5,018 nucleotides of DNA from a virus (lineage: Duplodnaviria; Heunggongvirae; Uroviricota; Caudoviricetes): IMG/VR virus record IMGVR_UViG_2563366829_000009, positions 1-5,018 of that record. One strand, given 5' to 3'. Numbering within the stretch: position 1 is the first letter of the stretch; each line of letters starts with the position of its first letter. Under the pieces are notes generated by a model. That model was not told the origin of the DNA. It did no database searches and saw only the letters and a list, made by a program, of their open reading frames with translations. Shown here piece after piece: positions 1 to 5,018 of this stretch. The position numbers were made by a program, and so were the translations under genes.

Positions 1-202
1 CGATAAAGCGTGACTACATCAGTGTCATGCCCAAACCAGACGGGTTAACGGCAGCAAAGAACCTTGCAGAGGCGTTCGAGCATTATAACGAATGGCATCC
101 GCATAGTGCACTGGGTTATCGCTCGCCACGGGAATATCTACGGCAGCAAGCCAGTAATGGGTTAAGTGATAACAGGTGTCTGGAAATATAGGGGCAAATC
201 CA
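1..202 (+). mobile_element. IS2-like insertion sequence, right end (partial; element continues beyond window start)
   Basis: Frame-3 translation of 3-191 gives a DDE-transposase C-terminus (...[36 protein letters not shown]) that I recognise as IS2 OrfB. The sequence after the stop (GGGGCAAATCCA, ending at 202) matches my memory of the IS2 right terminus. The minus-strand reading frame of the neighbouring gene changes character exactly at 202/203. The target-site duplication cannot be checked because the left end is outside the window. Confidence 0.78.
3..191 (+). CDS. insD: IS2-family transposase OrfB (InsD-like), C-terminal 62 codons, 5'-partial
   Basis: Open frame from the window edge to TAG at 189-191. 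The translation [62 protein letters not shown] is a typical IS3-family/IS2 transposase C-terminal tail. Confidence 0.75.
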
Positions 203-433
203 GCCGATAAGAATTGATGCTGCTGGTTTGTAAAAGAGAAGGCCGCAAAGAAAGCTGAGCATCGACAGGAGCACCCGGCGACGGATGGGGTACTCTACTG
301 CAGAGGTAACAAAAATTACCACCCCAGCCAAAGCCCCTAAAGCAACCTCCGGAGGGACACCTGCAATAACTGCAGCAAGAGAACCAAAACTAAGCAACTG
401 ATTTAATTGCTCATTTGTTACTTGAGCAGACAT
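203..433 (-). pseudogene. Small hydrophobic membrane protein gene (holin-like or lysogenic-conversion-like), N-terminal 77 codons native, truncated and fused into IS2
   Basis: ATG at 433-431 is preceded by AGGAGA (rc of 438-443) at 5-nt spacing. Residues 1-77 (MSAQVTNEQLNQLLSFGSLAAVIAGVPPEVALGALAGVVIFVTSAVEYPIRRRVLLSMLSFLCGLLFYKPAASILIG) contain two or three hydrophobic helices. Codon 78 onward (WICPYISRH..., down to 116) lies inside the IS2 terminus, so the 105-aa ORF in the track is a fusion artefact. The original C-terminus is lost or displaced. Confidence 0.55.
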
Positions 434-714
434 ACTTTCTCCTGTTTACTATCTATAAGCCAGTCAATTATTGATGACTAAACCCGCATAGCAAACCATA
501 TATGAATCATTATTGTTCCATATCATATATCTCAATAAAAGTACTAATGATTTTACAGAACGAGCCAGCAGAGTGGGGGCAGTTGTACAGGAACCATAGA
601 CTTAATTTTGTATTTAATAATGCTATGGTGTAATAAACCTGAACATGTATTTAAAATACGTACTGATTCATGATAGAATTCAAAGATAACTTTTCACCAA
701 CTCCGTTTTTGATA

Positions 715-741
715 CCCGCAATATTTTGCGGGCTTTTTTTT
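715..741 (+). terminator. Intrinsic terminator-like hairpin (CCCGCAA-TATT-TTGCGGG) followed by a T8 run, oriented for plus-strand transcription; may act bidirectionally
   Basis: 7-bp GC-rich stem 715-721/726-732 with a 4-nt loop, then T734-T741. The T-run overlaps the tailspike stop codon (rc of 740-742 = TAA). On the minus strand the hairpin is followed only by UAUCAAAAAC, so termination of the tailspike transcript here would be weak. Confidence 0.55.
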
Positions 742-3700
742 AACGTTCTTCCAGAGACTGAACCCGCTCTTTTATCTTATCCATTTCTCTGCGCTGCCAT
801 GCTGCCTCGATATAGAATAAGAGATCAGGTCTGACCCCCCATCTAGATCCTGCTGGCGTTATTTCAACGCGCTCAATGATGTCTTCTATTACCATCACTG
901 GATTATCATCATCATCAACAATGATGCTCCCGTCATTATCAGTCAGCGGCATTTCCCTTTGGCCAGTAATGACGTCATCATATACTGCGGGATAATCGTC
1001 ATAGCAAAGAAAGGCATAGCGGCATGTTGTGCTTTCTTCTTCCATGAGTCCGTGAGAAATAAGAACATCACGAAGTTGCTGCGCGATTACACCATGATGT
1101 ATCCTCGCCCCTTCTTCCCCCTTTATAGCGACAGCGTTCAGCCATTTATAAGCGATATACCTGACGTCACCCCAGGCATCCAGCAATGCTTCGTCAGGAG
1201 AGACCGGCTCTGTCTTTAATGTTCCGTCACTGGTAACCACAGGATTGGAGCCAAGATAAACTGTCGAGAACCTGTTTCCCGGACCACCAAGAGCATTTAC
1301 ATTATCAAGATAAGGTTTAACATCTCCGTTCTCAAAAAGATGTTCGAGTGCGTTATATACCGCGCGACGTGGAGTACTGCTTCCGGAACCATGCAACGTT
1401 ATCATTGCACCATCTGCTGAAGACGTTGTTTCACCGCCGCTAACGATTAATCTCTGAGCGGTAACATCATCAGACGGTACTTTCTTCGCAATAATGGCGT
1501 AATTACCCTCAAGTTTGACTTCCGCGCGAACTTGTCCTGATGTACCTGCATGGACAGTCAGTGACTGGACGGCAACATCATCTGTGAAATCAACGGGTAC
1601 AGGAACCGTCCTCACGCCTGACGTCGACATAAAAGTAGGAAGCGTTCTGTTAGGAGTGGCTCCGTAGACAAAATCCCTTGAAACAAATTCTTCCTGTTTA
1701 ATTTTCACCCTGAAACAATACAAATCAGCCGGGTGACCATCGTGAACATAAGGATATTTTCTGTTGTTATCCCCTATGCTCCATGGGTTTAGAAAGTCTT
1801 CCCCACCGAAAATGTAGTACAGCCAGTTGTCTTTGATACAAACTGAACCAACACCAACCGCAGAGTTAACTATTCCGCCCTGATAAATCTGATCAGTAAC
1901 ATTAACCCACTCTACATTATCCAGACTCCACTCATTGACGTTAACTCTGGTCATAAATGTTCTTGGATAATTTCCTGCATAACGGTTATCAGGTTCTCCT
2001 CCTTCCCACTCACCAAATGCGCGCTCACTGCCAAAAATAATCAGCTCATCGCCAACTTTGGCAAAAGGAAGGTTTGAGTGATGAACATTATTTGGGAAGC
2101 GAAGAGAATTCCATGATGTACCTAAATCAGAGCTTCTGTGCAATGAACTACCGGGTTGAGTACTTAATGTCCCCCTGGTCGTCAGATACAGAATGCCATC
2201 ATAATATTTTACACATGGCTCAGATGCATTCGCCTCATATTCTACAGGTATGCGTCTGCGAACAAAGCTACCAGGAGAACCGAAAGCATCAGAGAAATAG
2301 AGTATCCCAAGCTCGCGTGGACCAATATCACCATTATGGTAGCCAACAGCAAAACTGTTATCGCTAATCGTCGCAAAACTGTGAATCTCAGTAACAGGAG
2401 TGCTTCCGTCAACAAAAGAAGGAATAGTTCCAAGACTGGTTTTTCTCCATGGTGACGAGTGAAATGATGTGCCAAAACTCCAGTATCTACCCTCGTTATT
2501 CTGATCCACATCCTGGGTATTTTGCGTCGTAACTGTAAAGGTATTTTTATCAATAACAGTAGTCACCGTCATATTCCCGGTAACACCTGTAACACCAGAG
2601 TTTGAGAAGTTGACAAAATCACCAGCAAATAATCCGTGATCAGTAATGCGAATATAAGCGACTTGCTGATTTGCTGCTTTCGTTATACCACCATAAACGC
2701 GAAGGCTGCGACTCATTGGGCGATCCCACAACTCTGCAACCTGCAGTTTATTTCCTCTCACGGTCCGCGTCTCAATTACAGCAAAAAGGCGATTTCTGAC
2801 AACCCCCATACTCATGCAGTGATAGTTAACTGTGGGATAGTTTTCATGTAAATCTGTAAGCCATTCCGGCGTTGTCCAGGTCTTCCCGTCATCTCCTGAG
2901 CGAACCCATGCAACATGGAGGTTATTTACACCATGGCGGTCTCCAGCCATAAAAGGCGCATAGATGACATTGTCATATACAAACGTTTTATCCTGCGTCC
3001 AGGCGTTGTACCACGGTGTATCTGTAATTTTAAATAACTCTCCCTGGATAAAATCTTCAGAAGCATAAAAAAGAGGCTGGCCCGGTATTCTCTCAAATAA
3101 AAAACGAGCATTTTTAAATCGACTGACATCCGGAAGAGTTGATACTTTAAAAGTAAGCCCTAATCCGTCAATTTTATAACCTGGAGATGAGGCTTCAAGG
3201 CACGCGCTTATTGCAGTGGAATCGTCATTTATACCATCACCAACAGCTCCAAAATCTTTGGGGCTAATAGCATCACGCATTTTATCCTGGAACGTTCGGT
3301 ACACAGCCCCAGAACCATACTGAATAAACCAACCAAAACCACCAACAACTCCGGCGATTGCAGCATCGACATAATTACGCATTGAGCGATTATTTACAGC
3401 GTCCTGCTCAAATGATGGATCTGCAAGGTTAGAAATTTTGTTTTGCTTTGCATCGTAATATTTTGCAAGCAAAGATGGTTTCATCAATGCACGTCTGAAC
3501 CACCCAAAACATTGCTGGATCAGCATCGTCAGGTAGTCAAAGGCATCTTCATGCACTTCGGGGAAAAATTTTCCCTGATTGCGAAGGTCTGTGTCCTGCA
3601 CTACATCAAGCACACGATCTATCGTAATTCGCCATCCAGTAGCAAGCGGAGACGGAAGAACCACAGAACCGCCACTATAAGTGCCCGCCCCAGTTACCGT

Positions 3701-3859: not shown

Positions 3860-4054
3860 GTTAAATCTCCAGATAGTCGCAGCACCCGTTGCGCCGCATA
3901 TCTGGTTATTCTATTACCTGAAAAACCATATATGGATAAAAAGACTATAAATACCAATAGATATTACCTTTCGGGTAATTTGCAAAACGTGCTGGATAGC
4001 AAACAAATTATTTGTTACTGTATAAACATACAGTTATTGCATGGAGAAGATAAG
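3860..4054. promoter_or_regulatory. AT-rich divergent intergenic region between the tailspike gene (minus) and the small ORF (plus); contains a palindrome and candidate promoter elements
   Basis: 195 bp between two divergent start codons, each with a good RBS. Contains palindrome ATTACC-TTTCG-GGTAAT (3963-3979) immediately followed by the self-complementary hexamer TTGCAA (3980-3985), and TATAAA at 4021-4026 preceded by TG at 4019-4020. No hexamer pair with canonical 17-bp spacing was found, so the promoter assignment is tentative. Confidence 0.4.
3963..3979. repeat. Palindrome ATTACC-N5-GGTAAT (candidate operator or small hairpin), copy A
   Basis: Perfect 6-bp arms with a 5-nt spacer. The same half-site recurs at 3914-3919, 4321-4326 (within an inverted GGTAATTGCAAA motif) and as TTTACC-N5-GGTAAA at 4343-4359. 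Confidence 0.45.
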
Positions 4055-4312
4055 ATGCAGCAGTATCACTATCCACTGGAAGACGGATTTACCGAAAGGA
4101 TTCACACGCCGGGAGGCGTCAGGTCACTGGTGGAGGGATCGCACTTGATGAAATTACTCCGGGATCTCGATAAGGATGGATTTAATGTCGATGGCCCACT
4201 TGCCGAACTGACTGCACTGATTAACTACGTCACCAGCTCACAGATGTCTATGCAGGATCTGCAAACACATCTCGACTATTGTGCCGAACAATTACGAAAA
4301 CAAACCAGATAA
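4055..4312 (+). CDS. Hypothetical small acidic protein (85 aa), function unknown
   Basis: ATG at 4055 preceded by GGAG (4043-4046) at 8-nt spacing; stop TAA at 4310-4312. The ORF track start at 3932 adds 41 low-complexity codons from the AT-rich promoter region with no RBS, so the shorter start is preferred. Product MQQYHYPLEDGFTERIHTPGGVRSLVEGSHLMKLLRDLDKDGFNVDGPLAELTALINYVTSSQMSMQDLQTHLDYCAEQLRKQTR has about 14 D/E against 8 K/R and no hydrophobic segment; I do not recognise a family. Confidence 0.5.
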   Translation: MQQYHYPLEDGFTERIHTPGGVRSLVEGSHLMKLLRDLDKDGFNVDGPLAELTALINYVTSSQMSMQDLQTHLDYCAEQLRKQTR

Positions 4313-4330: not shown

Positions 4331-4374
4331 GGAGTGCTTATATTTACCTTTGCGGTAAATTTACATCGCACTCC
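4331..4374. repeat. Nested inverted repeat: GGAGTGC (4331-4337) / GCACTCC (4368-4374) enclosing palindrome TTTACC-TTTGC-GGTAAA (4343-4359), copy C of the ATTACC/GGTAAT-type motif
   Basis: Read directly from the sequence; lies 19-60 nt downstream of the small-ORF stop codon. Confidence 0.45.
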
Positions 4375-4385
4375 TCTTGTGCCAT

Positions 4386-4437
4386 AGTAATCGGGCACTG
4401 GCAAAATCCAGTGCCGGGATTGGTCTCCCGGATTACT
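4386..4437 (+). other. Compound stem-loop / imperfect long palindrome (candidate structured RNA element or protein-binding site)
   Basis: AGTAATC (4386-4392) pairs with GATTACT (4431-4437). Inside it is a perfect 8-bp hairpin GGCACTGG-CAAAAT-CCAGTGCC (4394-4415) and a second short hairpin GGGA-TTGGTC-TCCC (4416-4429). Confidence 0.35.
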
Positions 4438-4452
4438 ACAGAGGCACATATG

Positions 4453-4471
4453 CCGCATAAGCGGTTTTTTT
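4453..4471 (+). terminator. Weak intrinsic-terminator candidate (CCGC-ATAA-GCGG followed by T7) downstream of the small ORF
   Basis: 4-bp GC stem 4453-4456/4461-4464 followed by T4465-T4471. The stem is short, so confidence is low; it may act together with the upstream compound hairpin. Confidence 0.3.
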
Positions 4472-4566
4472 ATGTGTAAAGCGCACCTATTCTATGGTGG
4501 GCTGTGTGGGGGCACCGAAAGGTGCGCCGGGTTCCTTTGTAGCCGGTAAGACCAACTCTGCACAGT

Positions 4567-4599
4567 TCACCACCATCTGATTGGTCTCAGCGGTGGTGA
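4567..4599. repeat. Inverted repeat TCACCACC-N17-GGTGGTGA upstream of the antirepressor start (candidate operator)
   Basis: 8-bp perfect arms at 4567-4574 and 4592-4599. A second overlapping inverted repeat AGACCAA (4549-4555) / TTGGTCT (4581-4587) is also present. Located 27-60 nt upstream of ATG 4626. Confidence 0.4.
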
Positions 4600-4625: not shown

Positions 4626-4793
4626 ATGAATACCAAACCTTCCATCTTTTCCTTTGAGTCATCCTGCCAGATCCGTATGTTCATGATTGACGGAGAACCT
4701 TGGTTTGTCACCAAAGATGTGTGCAATGCTTTGAATATTGATGTTACACAAGCGAGAAAACTTGATAAAAAAGGCTGGAACAAAAAGGGGCTG
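4626..4793 (+). pseudogene. Bro-N-domain phage antirepressor-like gene, N-terminal 56 codons only; truncated by IS3-family insertion
   Basis: ATG 4626 preceded by AAGGTG (4614-4619) at 6-nt spacing. Translation MNTKPSIFSFESSCQIRMFMIDGEPWFVTKDVCNALNIDVTQARKLDKK... fits the Bro-N / antirepressor N-terminal pattern (F-x-F...IR...DGEPWF-x-x-KDV...L). The frame runs straight into the IS terminus TGAACCGCCCC at 4794, whose first three bases supply the stop codon. Confidence 0.6.
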
Positions 4794-5018
4794 TGAACCG
4801 CCCCGGGTTTCCTGGAGAGTGTTTTATCTGTGAACTCAGGCTGCCAGATCATCGTTTCCGATGGAAGCATAATAAGCTTTTTCTGCTTCTGCCGGAGGAG
4901 TATGGCCCAGCCTTTCCAGCAATCGTCGATTGTTATACCAGTCCACCCACGTGAGTGTGGCCAGTTCCACTTCTGCACGGTTTTTCCAGCTCTTACGGTG
5001 TATTACCTCCGCTTTGTA
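4794..5018 (-). mobile_element. IS3-family insertion sequence (IS629/IS3411-like), terminal inverted repeat and 3' end of transposase; element continues beyond window end
   Basis: Terminus TGAACCGCCCCGGGTTTCCTGGAGAG at 4794 is a characteristic IS3-family end (TG...CA). The minus-strand frame 5018-4836 encodes a DDE-transposase C-terminus. The target-site duplication cannot be checked within the window. Confidence 0.75.
4836..5018 (-). CDS. IS3-family transposase OrfB, C-terminal 60 codons, 5'-partial
   Basis: Reverse-complement translation YKAEVIHRKSWKNRAEVELATLTWVDWYNNRRLLERLGHTPPAEAEKAYYASIGNDDLAA* is in frame with the window edge; stop TGA is rc of 4836-4838. It is absent from the ORF track only because it has no in-window start codon. 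Confidence 0.8.
   Translation of the reverse strand, partial: YKAEVIHRKSWKNRAEVELATLTWVDWYNNRRLLERLGHTPPAEAEKAYYASIGNDDLAA

Follow-up and report, generated by a model that had tools for sequence, protein, structure and literature searches.

The gene considered here has its closest described counterparts in the phages epsilon15 (gp23), phiV10 (gp27) and SPN1S (SPN1S_0026), whose products show 91.8–92.5% amino acid identity to the intact protein over all 134 residues (91.8% for gp23 and 92.5% for gp27). In these phages the orthologue opens the lysis cassette, overlaps a Phage_holin_3_7 gene and has a GH19 endolysin and embedded spanins downstream. The copy that we study differs in that it is cut after codon 77, its leader has diverged and the slot on its tailspike side is without a conversion gene. 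Closer still is an intact allele, WP_001276090.1 (K1 E. coli IHE3034, APEC O1, IAI39; phage vB_EcoP_ZX5, where the protein is 100% identical), with 99–100% DNA identity over positions 203-739; endosialidase tailspike and 306-bp spacer are shared as well, and the gene there is uninterrupted and encodes 134 amino acids.

Class I holins such as lambda S105 are small inner-membrane proteins with about three membrane segments; their cytoplasmic loop is basic and their C-terminal tail charged. The intact gp23-type protein has the same layout, and its gene likewise opens a cassette that also encodes a soluble endolysin and spanins; the protein differs from S105 in showing no sequence relationship and no dual-start motif, in being paired always with a second membrane protein and in that its function is putative. 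The P1 LydA/LydB and P2 Y/LysA pairs are two-gene holin/antiholin systems where, as in the present case, the endolysin gene is preceded or flanked by a pair of neighbouring genes for small membrane proteins. Their proteins belong to families other than PF16931 and PF05449, the two considered here; one PF16931 relative does follow gpL and gpX, precisely where P2 has its lysis genes.

The window, by which we mean the whole 5,018-nucleotide stretch of DNA that was analysed, is the reverse complement of positions 2416-7433 of L031 (E. coli assembly GCA_000408745.1) and is the right-hand end of a prophage. Its features are listed in Table 1. The prophage is epsilon15-like (genus Uetakevirus), is integrated beside yfgI and recognises the K1 capsule through its endosialidase tailspike, in which Pfam finds all four endosialidase domains (End_N_terminal, End_beta_propel, End_beta_barrel and End_tail_spike) together with the Peptidase_S74 chaperone; positions 769-3161 of the window are 99.3% identical to the CUS-3 endosialidase.

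Table 1. Features of the window, with positions counted from its first letter.
Feature	Positions	Strand	Remarks
IS2 right end	1-202	+	Last 54 transposase codons (27-191) and right inverted repeat ending at 202
Target-site duplication GCCGA, one copy	203-207		5 bp
gp23-type putative holin gene, codons 1-77 of 134	203-433	-	Phage_holin_8; first gene of lysis cassette
Fused ORF, 105 aa	116-433	-	77 holin residues and 28 residues from the IS2 end
Ribosome-binding site AGGAG	439-443	-	5 nt upstream of ATG; read from sequence
Lysis-cassette leader	434-508	-	Homologous among epsilon15-like phages; CATATATGGTTT at 504->493 and stem-loop
Distal AT-rich spacer	509-714		31% GC; without credible ORF; fills variable slot
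Promoter-like site TTTAAA-18-TAGAAT, TG before -10 hexamer	650-679	+	Putative; points at terminator
Intrinsic-terminator hairpin (715-732) and T-run	715-740	+	Opposes tailspike and lysis genes
Endosialidase tailspike, 1039 aa	740-3859	-	Upstream neighbour of lysis cassette
Divergent regulatory region	3860-4054
85-aa ORF	4055-4312
Two Rfam-recognised small RNAs	4382-4577
Bro-N antirepressor gene	4626-4796		Cut by second IS3-family element
Second IS3-family element	~4794 to window end		Interrupts antirepressor gene

We assign the ORF at 433-203 to the 5' 57% of the first lysis-cassette gene of an epsilon15-like prophage, with a probability of roughly 0.82. Against PF16931 (Phage_holin_8; cut-off 26.4 bits) the fragment present in the window scores 33.9 bits and the restored 134-residue protein 45 bits, and both match phrog_198, labelled 'holin', with E values of 9.4e-25 and 5.6e-41, respectively. 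The fragment is 99.6% identical in DNA to intact alleles annotated 'putative holin'. By tblastn, 36 records of epsilon15-like phages, and of no others, yielded full-length orthologues of 131–134 residues that are 82–100% identical, and the 131–134-residue form is carried by at least 1000 contigs, so codon 77 is not near the natural end of the gene. The gene belongs to the core of the genus Uetakevirus. The family is small: clustering at 50% leaves 58 representatives, and many of these are fragments. PF16931 is matched by each of the 23 full-length relatives that were aligned, even where identity falls to 23%, and three hydrophobic blocks and a hydrophilic tail are common to all of them; the shared features are an LGAFAGAxxFVxSAxE block, a basic loop, an SFxxGxL block, a third hydrophobic block and a DNP...K.GG tail. 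This full-length architecture (117–134 residues, three blocks, C-terminal tail) is present in the intact allele and is missing from the copy in the window, which stops at residue 77 inside block 2 and is thus a truncated (pseudogene) member of the family. Searches of Pfam, PHROGs and NCBIfam returned no match to GtrA, acyltransferase or Wzy/O-antigen families or to the epsilon15 gp22 inhibitor, the holin family being the only one found; in NCBIfam the two holin-like proteins of the cassette and the endolysin are without a model. The word 'holin' is used here as a family label combined with a position, and the activity that it names is putative. In most database records the gp23-type protein is entered as a 'membrane protein', with the name 'holin' kept for the product of the second gene.

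These results bear out much of an earlier note on this DNA, written from the sequence alone. It had described an ORF with a ribosome-binding site of its own (ATG at 433-431 and AGGAG at 443-439, minus strand) next to a tailspike gene, encoding a small membrane protein whose C-terminus is removed by IS2 after codon 77, and had proposed looking for the uninterrupted allele in related genomes and predicting the membrane segments of the restored protein. The junction does lie at 202/203, after codon 77 of 134; the uninterrupted allele is found in relatives; and the family that the restored protein matches is a membrane (holin) family rather than a non-membrane one. Of the two functions that the note had offered, lysis gene is favoured by family and position, while lysogenic-conversion factor finds no counterpart among the conversion families.

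In every intact relative the order of genes is tailspike, a variable interval, the gp23-type gene, the Phage_holin_3_7 gene, the GH19 endolysin and the spanins, as read in IHE3034, IAI39, ZX5, epsilon15, phiV10 and others. The spanins comprise a DUF2514/Rz-like i-spanin with an embedded lipoprotein o-spanin (lipobox LALAGC), and beyond them lie an attachment site and an integrase gene in phage genomes, or attR and then yfgI in lysogens. The comparison with epsilon15-like phages that the note had called for therefore places the gene at the head of the lysis cassette. The stop codon of this first gene and the start codon of the Phage_holin_3_7 (PF05449) gene overlap (ATGGTAACGCATGA). Apart from the spanins, the two holin-like proteins are the only membrane proteins of the cassette. 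The endolysin has no hydrophobic N-terminus (maximum 19-residue Kyte-Doolittle mean of 0.57) and no signal or SAR segment; because it is soluble and without an N-terminal hydrophobic segment, it would need a hole in the inner membrane in order to reach the cell wall. ZX5 is a viable temperate phage in which the segment is 99.6% identical; when the phage repressor is overexpressed, its transcripts for holin and endolysin drop by more than 99.9% (PMC9782041).

The pairing of the two membrane-protein genes extends well beyond close relatives. Pairs of PF16931 and PF05449 genes recur at 35–38% identity, and in the two distant PF16931 members whose context was inspected, one from a tailspike phage with a sulfatase gene in the slot and the other the P2-like case mentioned above, the PF05449 gene comes immediately next. 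A position at the head of the cassette followed by a PF05449 gene is accordingly what we find in intact and distant relatives alike, and the conserved unit is the PF16931+PF05449 pair rather than one gene by itself.

The element that interrupts the gene is IS2. Positions 1-202 align with the right end of the curated K-12 IS2A (E. coli K-12 NC_000913.3, 381260-382590, 1331 bp), the match stopping exactly at 202 (...GGGGCAAATCCA), and the terminal inverted repeat and the C-terminus of the IS2 transposase are both in the window, the latter with an rve_3 integrase-core match in Pfam (E 4.3e-9). By itself the window holds one IS2 end and one copy of the target duplication; the second flank comes from E. 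coli MS 196-1 and from the source assembly. In MS 196-1 the same insert is 1331 bp long with GCCGA at both flanks, and in the source assembly TCGGC (read on the gene strand) is found on both sides of the insert, beyond which the gene continues into its 3' part without loss of sequence. In IHE3034, where the allele is uninterrupted, GCCGA occurs once and the DNA reads ...ctatGCCGAtaagaattg... across the site. The event is a simple insertion with a 5-bp target duplication, and the element of about 1331 bp with its 5-bp direct repeats, seen in MS 196-1 and the source assembly, has the size, duplication and right inverted repeat (matching K-12 IS2A) of known IS2 insertions of the IS3 family. It differs from K-12 IS2A by about 4% in sequence over the last 202 bp, and in L031 the insert counts 1337 bp as against 1331 bp. 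Since the insertion is simple, precise excision of IS2 would restore the holin gene.

The reading frame of the broken gene continues into IS2, giving a fused ORF of 105 residues, and exactly this fusion protein is on record as EOW45193.1 from E. coli KTE130. Several 'partial' entries of the holin protein with 76–77 residues, located at contig ends, are on record as well. Among the matches listed from 5426 complete E. coli genomes, MS 196-1 is the only one that reaches into 1-202, and there PGAP annotates two fragments as 'putative holin, incomplete' on either side of an IS3-family transposase. The fragment is thus already annotated in RefSeq, along with the other part of the gene and the insertion sequence, and the disruption is a real if ordinary case of IS-mediated prophage decay. 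Two further truncated members of the family break within 3 nt of the IS2 site. In one (L023) the gene is joined to another located 4.6 kb away in the same prophage, which implies a rearrangement or an assembly chimera, and in the other (L024), from a non-E. coli sample, it is joined to an unrelated integrase-bearing element. An insertion hotspot at codons 77-78 was considered and set aside, three junctions of different kinds being too few for such a claim.

The intact product is predicted to be an inner-membrane protein of 134 residues with three hydrophobic blocks, at approximately residues 16-46, 54-85 (with K69-P70 in the middle of the block) and 93-115 by hydropathy, with RRR in the loop at 51-53 and charges in the C-terminal tail at 117-134. 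AlphaFold2 places helices at 7-24, 28-44, 50-66, 68-79 and 89-119 with modest confidence (mean pLDDT 65.7), so the chain may span the membrane three or four times, and the IS2 break falls inside the fourth of these helices and the second hydrophobic block. A three-span arrangement with the N-terminus outside and the C-terminus inside, where the basic loop and the tail are cytoplasmic as in class I holins, is what we infer. Three spans are predicted by the annotators of epsilon15 and phiV10, too. In terms of structure the features of a holin are present, namely a small membrane protein with a charged C-terminus, encoded beside an endolysin that has no export signal. Our search of the literature found no experiment on any PF16931 or PF05449 member, including the gp23- and gp24-type proteins; a paper on the UE-M6 holin was rejected as functional evidence, that holin being of class II and unrelated.

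Because the stop and start codons of the two genes overlap, both membrane proteins would be made together, and most likely they form one holin system. When the lytic cycle ends, such a system would open the inner membrane and so give the signal-less endolysin access to the cell wall. The system could be a two-subunit holin or a holin with a timing partner, and the first protein would accordingly be co-holin or timing partner; hole formation and the division of labour between the two are in this sense proposals drawn from family, topology and gene order.

A more specific assignment, to which we give a minority share of our belief, is that the gp23-type protein is an antiholin or timing regulator of the Phage_holin_3_7 holin, in which case its loss would alter the timing of lysis, probably making it earlier, while lysis itself would still take place. 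The gp23-type and Phage_holin_3_7 genes always form an overlapping pair, annotators usually name only the second of them 'holin', and neither gene has a dual-start motif, which makes a separate regulator plausible. Yet it is the first protein that Pfam and PHROGs place among the holins and whose three hydrophobic blocks and charged C-terminal tail resemble those of class I holins, and nothing found here tells the two roles apart. In either case IS2 also cuts the second gene off from the promoter and ends its translational coupling.

Whichever role the first protein plays in the holin system, the insertion costs it half of block 2 and everything beyond, namely block 3 (the last membrane helix) and the charged tail, and adds 28 unrelated residues. 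The PF05449, GH19 and DUF2514 genes are intact beyond IS2 in the source assembly, outside the window; these remaining lysis genes are now 1.33 kb from the leader, with translational coupling lost, and transcription toward them would cross IS2 antisense to the transposase genes. With the holin truncated and the remaining lysis genes split from both leader and coupling, the prophage is predicted to be lysis-defective, including a presumed polar effect on the downstream genes. Read-through from IS2 could still express those genes, and the second holin-like protein might suffice for lysis on its own. A second insertion sequence, located in the antirepressor gene, shows that the prophage is decaying.

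The upstream region is composed of two quite different parts. Its 306 bp (434-739) have a GC content of 33.0%, compared with 44.5% for the whole window, 44.7% for the tailspike gene and 48% for the ORF itself, in agreement with the AT-richness reported in the earlier note. The proximal 75 bp are the conserved leader, and the distal ~230 bp (509-739) have 31% GC. In alignments of the upstream regions of five, then ten, epsilon15-like phages, homology starts about 75 nt before the ATG, at CCATATATGGTTT (505-493, minus strand). The motif CATATATGGTTT that is included here also occurs about 76 nt before the tailspike ATG in the window, in epsilon15 and in phiV10, and in ZX5 and epsilon15 it recurs before the head operon, the tailspike, gp23 and a few early genes, with counts of 11 and 8 where shuffled sequences give 3.5 and 2.9, respectively. 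This pattern suggests a transcription signal that may provide the lysis cassette with a promoter or activator site of its own. Between motif and ribosome-binding site a stem-loop can form, for which covariation is weak (25-pair consensus, 4 compensatory changes, covariation term -0.17). The annotators of epsilon15 marked an RNase III site at the position of this stem-loop. Relative to other epsilon15-like phages, the leader in the window has a stronger AGGAG and does not contain the short ATG-led upstream ORF of most relatives.

The distal part is of another nature. It was detected in 3 phage records and in 72 E. coli genomes out of 5426, and nowhere else; in each of them it lies beside an endosialidase tailspike. 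None of its ORFs exceeds 43 residues and none has a ribosome-binding site; the longest (43 residues, 502-633, plus strand) was rejected for this reason, and an ORF at 670-834 was discarded as running through the terminator into the tailspike gene. In relatives the interval between tailspike and gp23-type gene is occupied by a Wzy-like polymerase and an alpha-polymerase inhibitor in epsilon15 (31% GC), an O-acetyltransferase in phiV10, TL-2011b, Tyrion and PAS61, gtrABC in BUCT554, acetylase fragments and gtrA in SPN1S, and short unknown ORFs in phiv142-3 and a Klebsiella prophage. To judge from gene content, this interval is the accessory-gene slot of the genus for receptor modification and is empty in K1-type phages, and the distal 230 bp are filler in the empty slot, ending in a terminator that faces the opposite way. 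The idea that the spacer is left over from a conversion gene of some other phage, or from the neuO region of CUS-3, was considered and rejected: DNA similarity is confined to K1-type Uetakevirus copies, and homology to CUS-3 ends at window position 769.

The terminator hairpin is the sole terminator-like site detected and is on the plus strand only (fold -15 kcal/mol, z -3.9); among strains its stem is kept while the loop flips between TATT and AATA. It is predicted to stop plus-strand transcripts before they enter the tailspike gene in antisense, and its orientation fits the opposite-strand conversion genes of relatives, which converge on the tailspike. One may ask whether the spacer is instead a functional unit, that is, either the source of a plus-strand RNA of ~55 nt (from the promoter-like site at 650-679 to the terminator at 715-740) or the stump of a deleted conversion operon, and this we consider improbable. 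The lone terminator does suit the plus strand, as expected for conversion genes that run on the opposite strand as in epsilon15, phiV10, Tyrion, BUCT554 and SPN1S, the promoter-like site, which has an extended -10, precedes the hairpin by 35 nt and could define such an RNA, the stem persists despite the flip of the loop, and the GC content is that of the epsilon15 conversion genes. On the other hand, promoter-like sites are only about twice as frequent as expected in such AT-rich DNA (5 found in 150-900 against 2.4), so that chance is a possible explanation; a search of 203-739 against Rfam gave no family at E<=1, with matches at 4382-4577 only; the overall RNA structure of the spacer is not above that of shuffled controls on either strand (z -1.2 and 0.07); and DNA similarity to the slot content of any other phage is not detectable. 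The promoter-like site is invariant in 8 copies, as is nearly all of the spacer, and with copies 98–100% identical such conservation is uninformative.

We return, then, to the reading of the ORF as a lysis gene and of the distal spacer as an empty slot, which settles how much of the AT-rich module described in the earlier note can be kept. The AT-richness holds for the spacer, of which only the distal 230 bp are specific to this phage type and the proximal 75 bp are the conserved leader, and fails for the gene, which, with 48% GC, core status in Uetakevirus and 91.8% identity to epsilon15 gp23, does not belong to a separately acquired cassette. The intuition of a conversion gene was nearly right as to place, since the interval between tailspike and gp23 is where relatives hold their O-antigen conversion genes; these genes lie in the slot on the tailspike side, which is empty here. 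That the prophage expresses the gp23-type gene itself for lysogenic conversion or to modify surface polysaccharide is extremely improbable, for even though it lies downstream of the tailspike with conversion genes of relatives nearby, and the epsilon15 alpha-polymerase inhibitor is a small membrane protein as well, it is present in each of these relatives in addition to their conversion genes, is translationally coupled to lysis genes, matches none of the GtrA, acyltransferase or Wzy families and is conserved at 82–100% identity among phages whose receptors are unrelated (Salmonella, E. coli O157/O146 and Klebsiella O-antigens; the K1 capsule), which argues against a receptor-specific modifier. 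Presence that varies with receptor specificity, the behaviour of a 'moron', is seen for the genes between the gp23-type gene and the tailspike and not for the gp23-type gene.

The reading of the locus is therefore corrected: the ORF serves lysis and not conversion, and the AT-rich DNA, which lies outside the gene's module, represents an accessory-gene slot that is empty. The predicted failure to lyse the K1 host is of relevance to the induction of such prophages and to the sourcing of K1-specific phage or endosialidase. The widely copied 'putative holin' label has only position and topology as its basis, and the family that carries it always travels with a second membrane protein. Two broader and doubtful propositions, which we put forward as speculations, are that Phage_holin_8 and Phage_holin_3_7 constitute an obligate two-component holin or holin/antiholin module, so far uncharacterised, and that the K1 slot has retained or evolved a prophage-expressed plus-strand unit at 650-740 (the ~55-nt RNA). 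Such a module would, on the evidence of gene order, span epsilon15-like podoviruses and P2-like myoviruses, and if the module reading is true the IS2 knock-out, beside isogenic intact K1 prophages, would be a ready-made test of the first partner.

The tailspike of this prophage is a composite, its N-terminal ∼166 residues being of the epsilon15 type while the catalytic and chaperone parts (window 769-3161) share 99.3% identity with the endosialidase of CUS-3, a P22-like phage. The receptor-binding module has thus been exchanged recently, the partners being podoviruses of unrelated lineages with K1 strains as hosts. In a distant relative of the phage type (L017 1338-2834) the slot between the tailspike gene and the holin-like pair is occupied by a gene of the sulfatase family, encoded on the opposite strand; among the enterobacterial members no such gene was seen as slot content.

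Genome-wide in both the intact K1 phage vB_EcoP_ZX5 and epsilon15, the motif CATATRTGGTTT is commoner than in shuffled sequences and lies ∼50-76 nt 5' of head operon, tailspike gene and lysis cassette alike, with a −10-like hexamer (TAGAAT, TATGAT or TATAAT) 3' of it. We regard the motif as a candidate for a late promoter or an activator site in this genus. Its positions in the window are listed in the table together with those of the features around the antirepressor gene.

Coordinates in the window of the recurrent motif and of features at the antirepressor locus
Feature	Position	Strand	Basis or remark
Motif CATATRTGGTTT	3926-3935 and 493-505		
c4-a1b1 target element	4382-4434	+	Rfam, sub-threshold
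isrK	4395-4471	+	Rfam, 74.7 bits, above gathering score
C4 antisense RNA	4490-4577	+	Rfam, 78.6 bits, above gathering score
Bro-N antirepressor gene	4626-4796	+	interrupted after 56 codons
Second IS3-family element	about 4794-5018		
Transposase C-terminus of that element	4836-4970	-	

Alignment of the region preceding gp23, the putative holin gene, establishes that most epsilon15-like phages have a strong ribosome-binding site, AAGGGGG, and a short out-of-frame ORF led by ATG (MHSKRW...) that lies just 5' of the gp23 start and overlaps it, the gp23 start itself being served by a weaker site, GGTGG. In contrast, the K1-type leader of the window lacks the upstream ATG and carries AGGAG instead. 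Two further members of the Phage_holin_8 family, of different alleles, are also truncated (L023 3190-3341 and L024 250-1083, after residues 78 and 77), in each case no more than 3 nt from the IS2 insertion site. One of these junctions joins a gene from elsewhere in its own prophage, 4.6 kb distant, and the other an unrelated integrase-bearing element; chance, artefacts of assembly or a fragile site could lie behind such near-identical break points.

The element in the antirepressor gene, which we take to be IS629/IS1203-like, arrived in a separate event. The two insertions are sequential, because E. coli MS 196-1 carries that of IS2 without the one in the antirepressor gene. As a separate observation, in E. 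coli IAI39 an IS3-family element bearing a group II intron (ltrA) has itself disrupted the host gene yfgI, which adjoins the corresponding end of this prophage (L002 1091-5214).

Two copies of the palindrome TTACC-N5-GGTAA, where 0.01 would be expected by chance, are found at 3964-3978 and 4344-4358, the former coinciding in position with a repressor binding site annotated 5' of the tailspike gene in the epsilon15 record, and both are probably operators of the prophage repressor. The isrK, C4 and c4-a1b1 matches are located directly 5' of the Bro-N antirepressor gene, a placement suggesting that antirepressor synthesis in the epsilon15-like prophage is under antisense control like that of P1/P7 immI.
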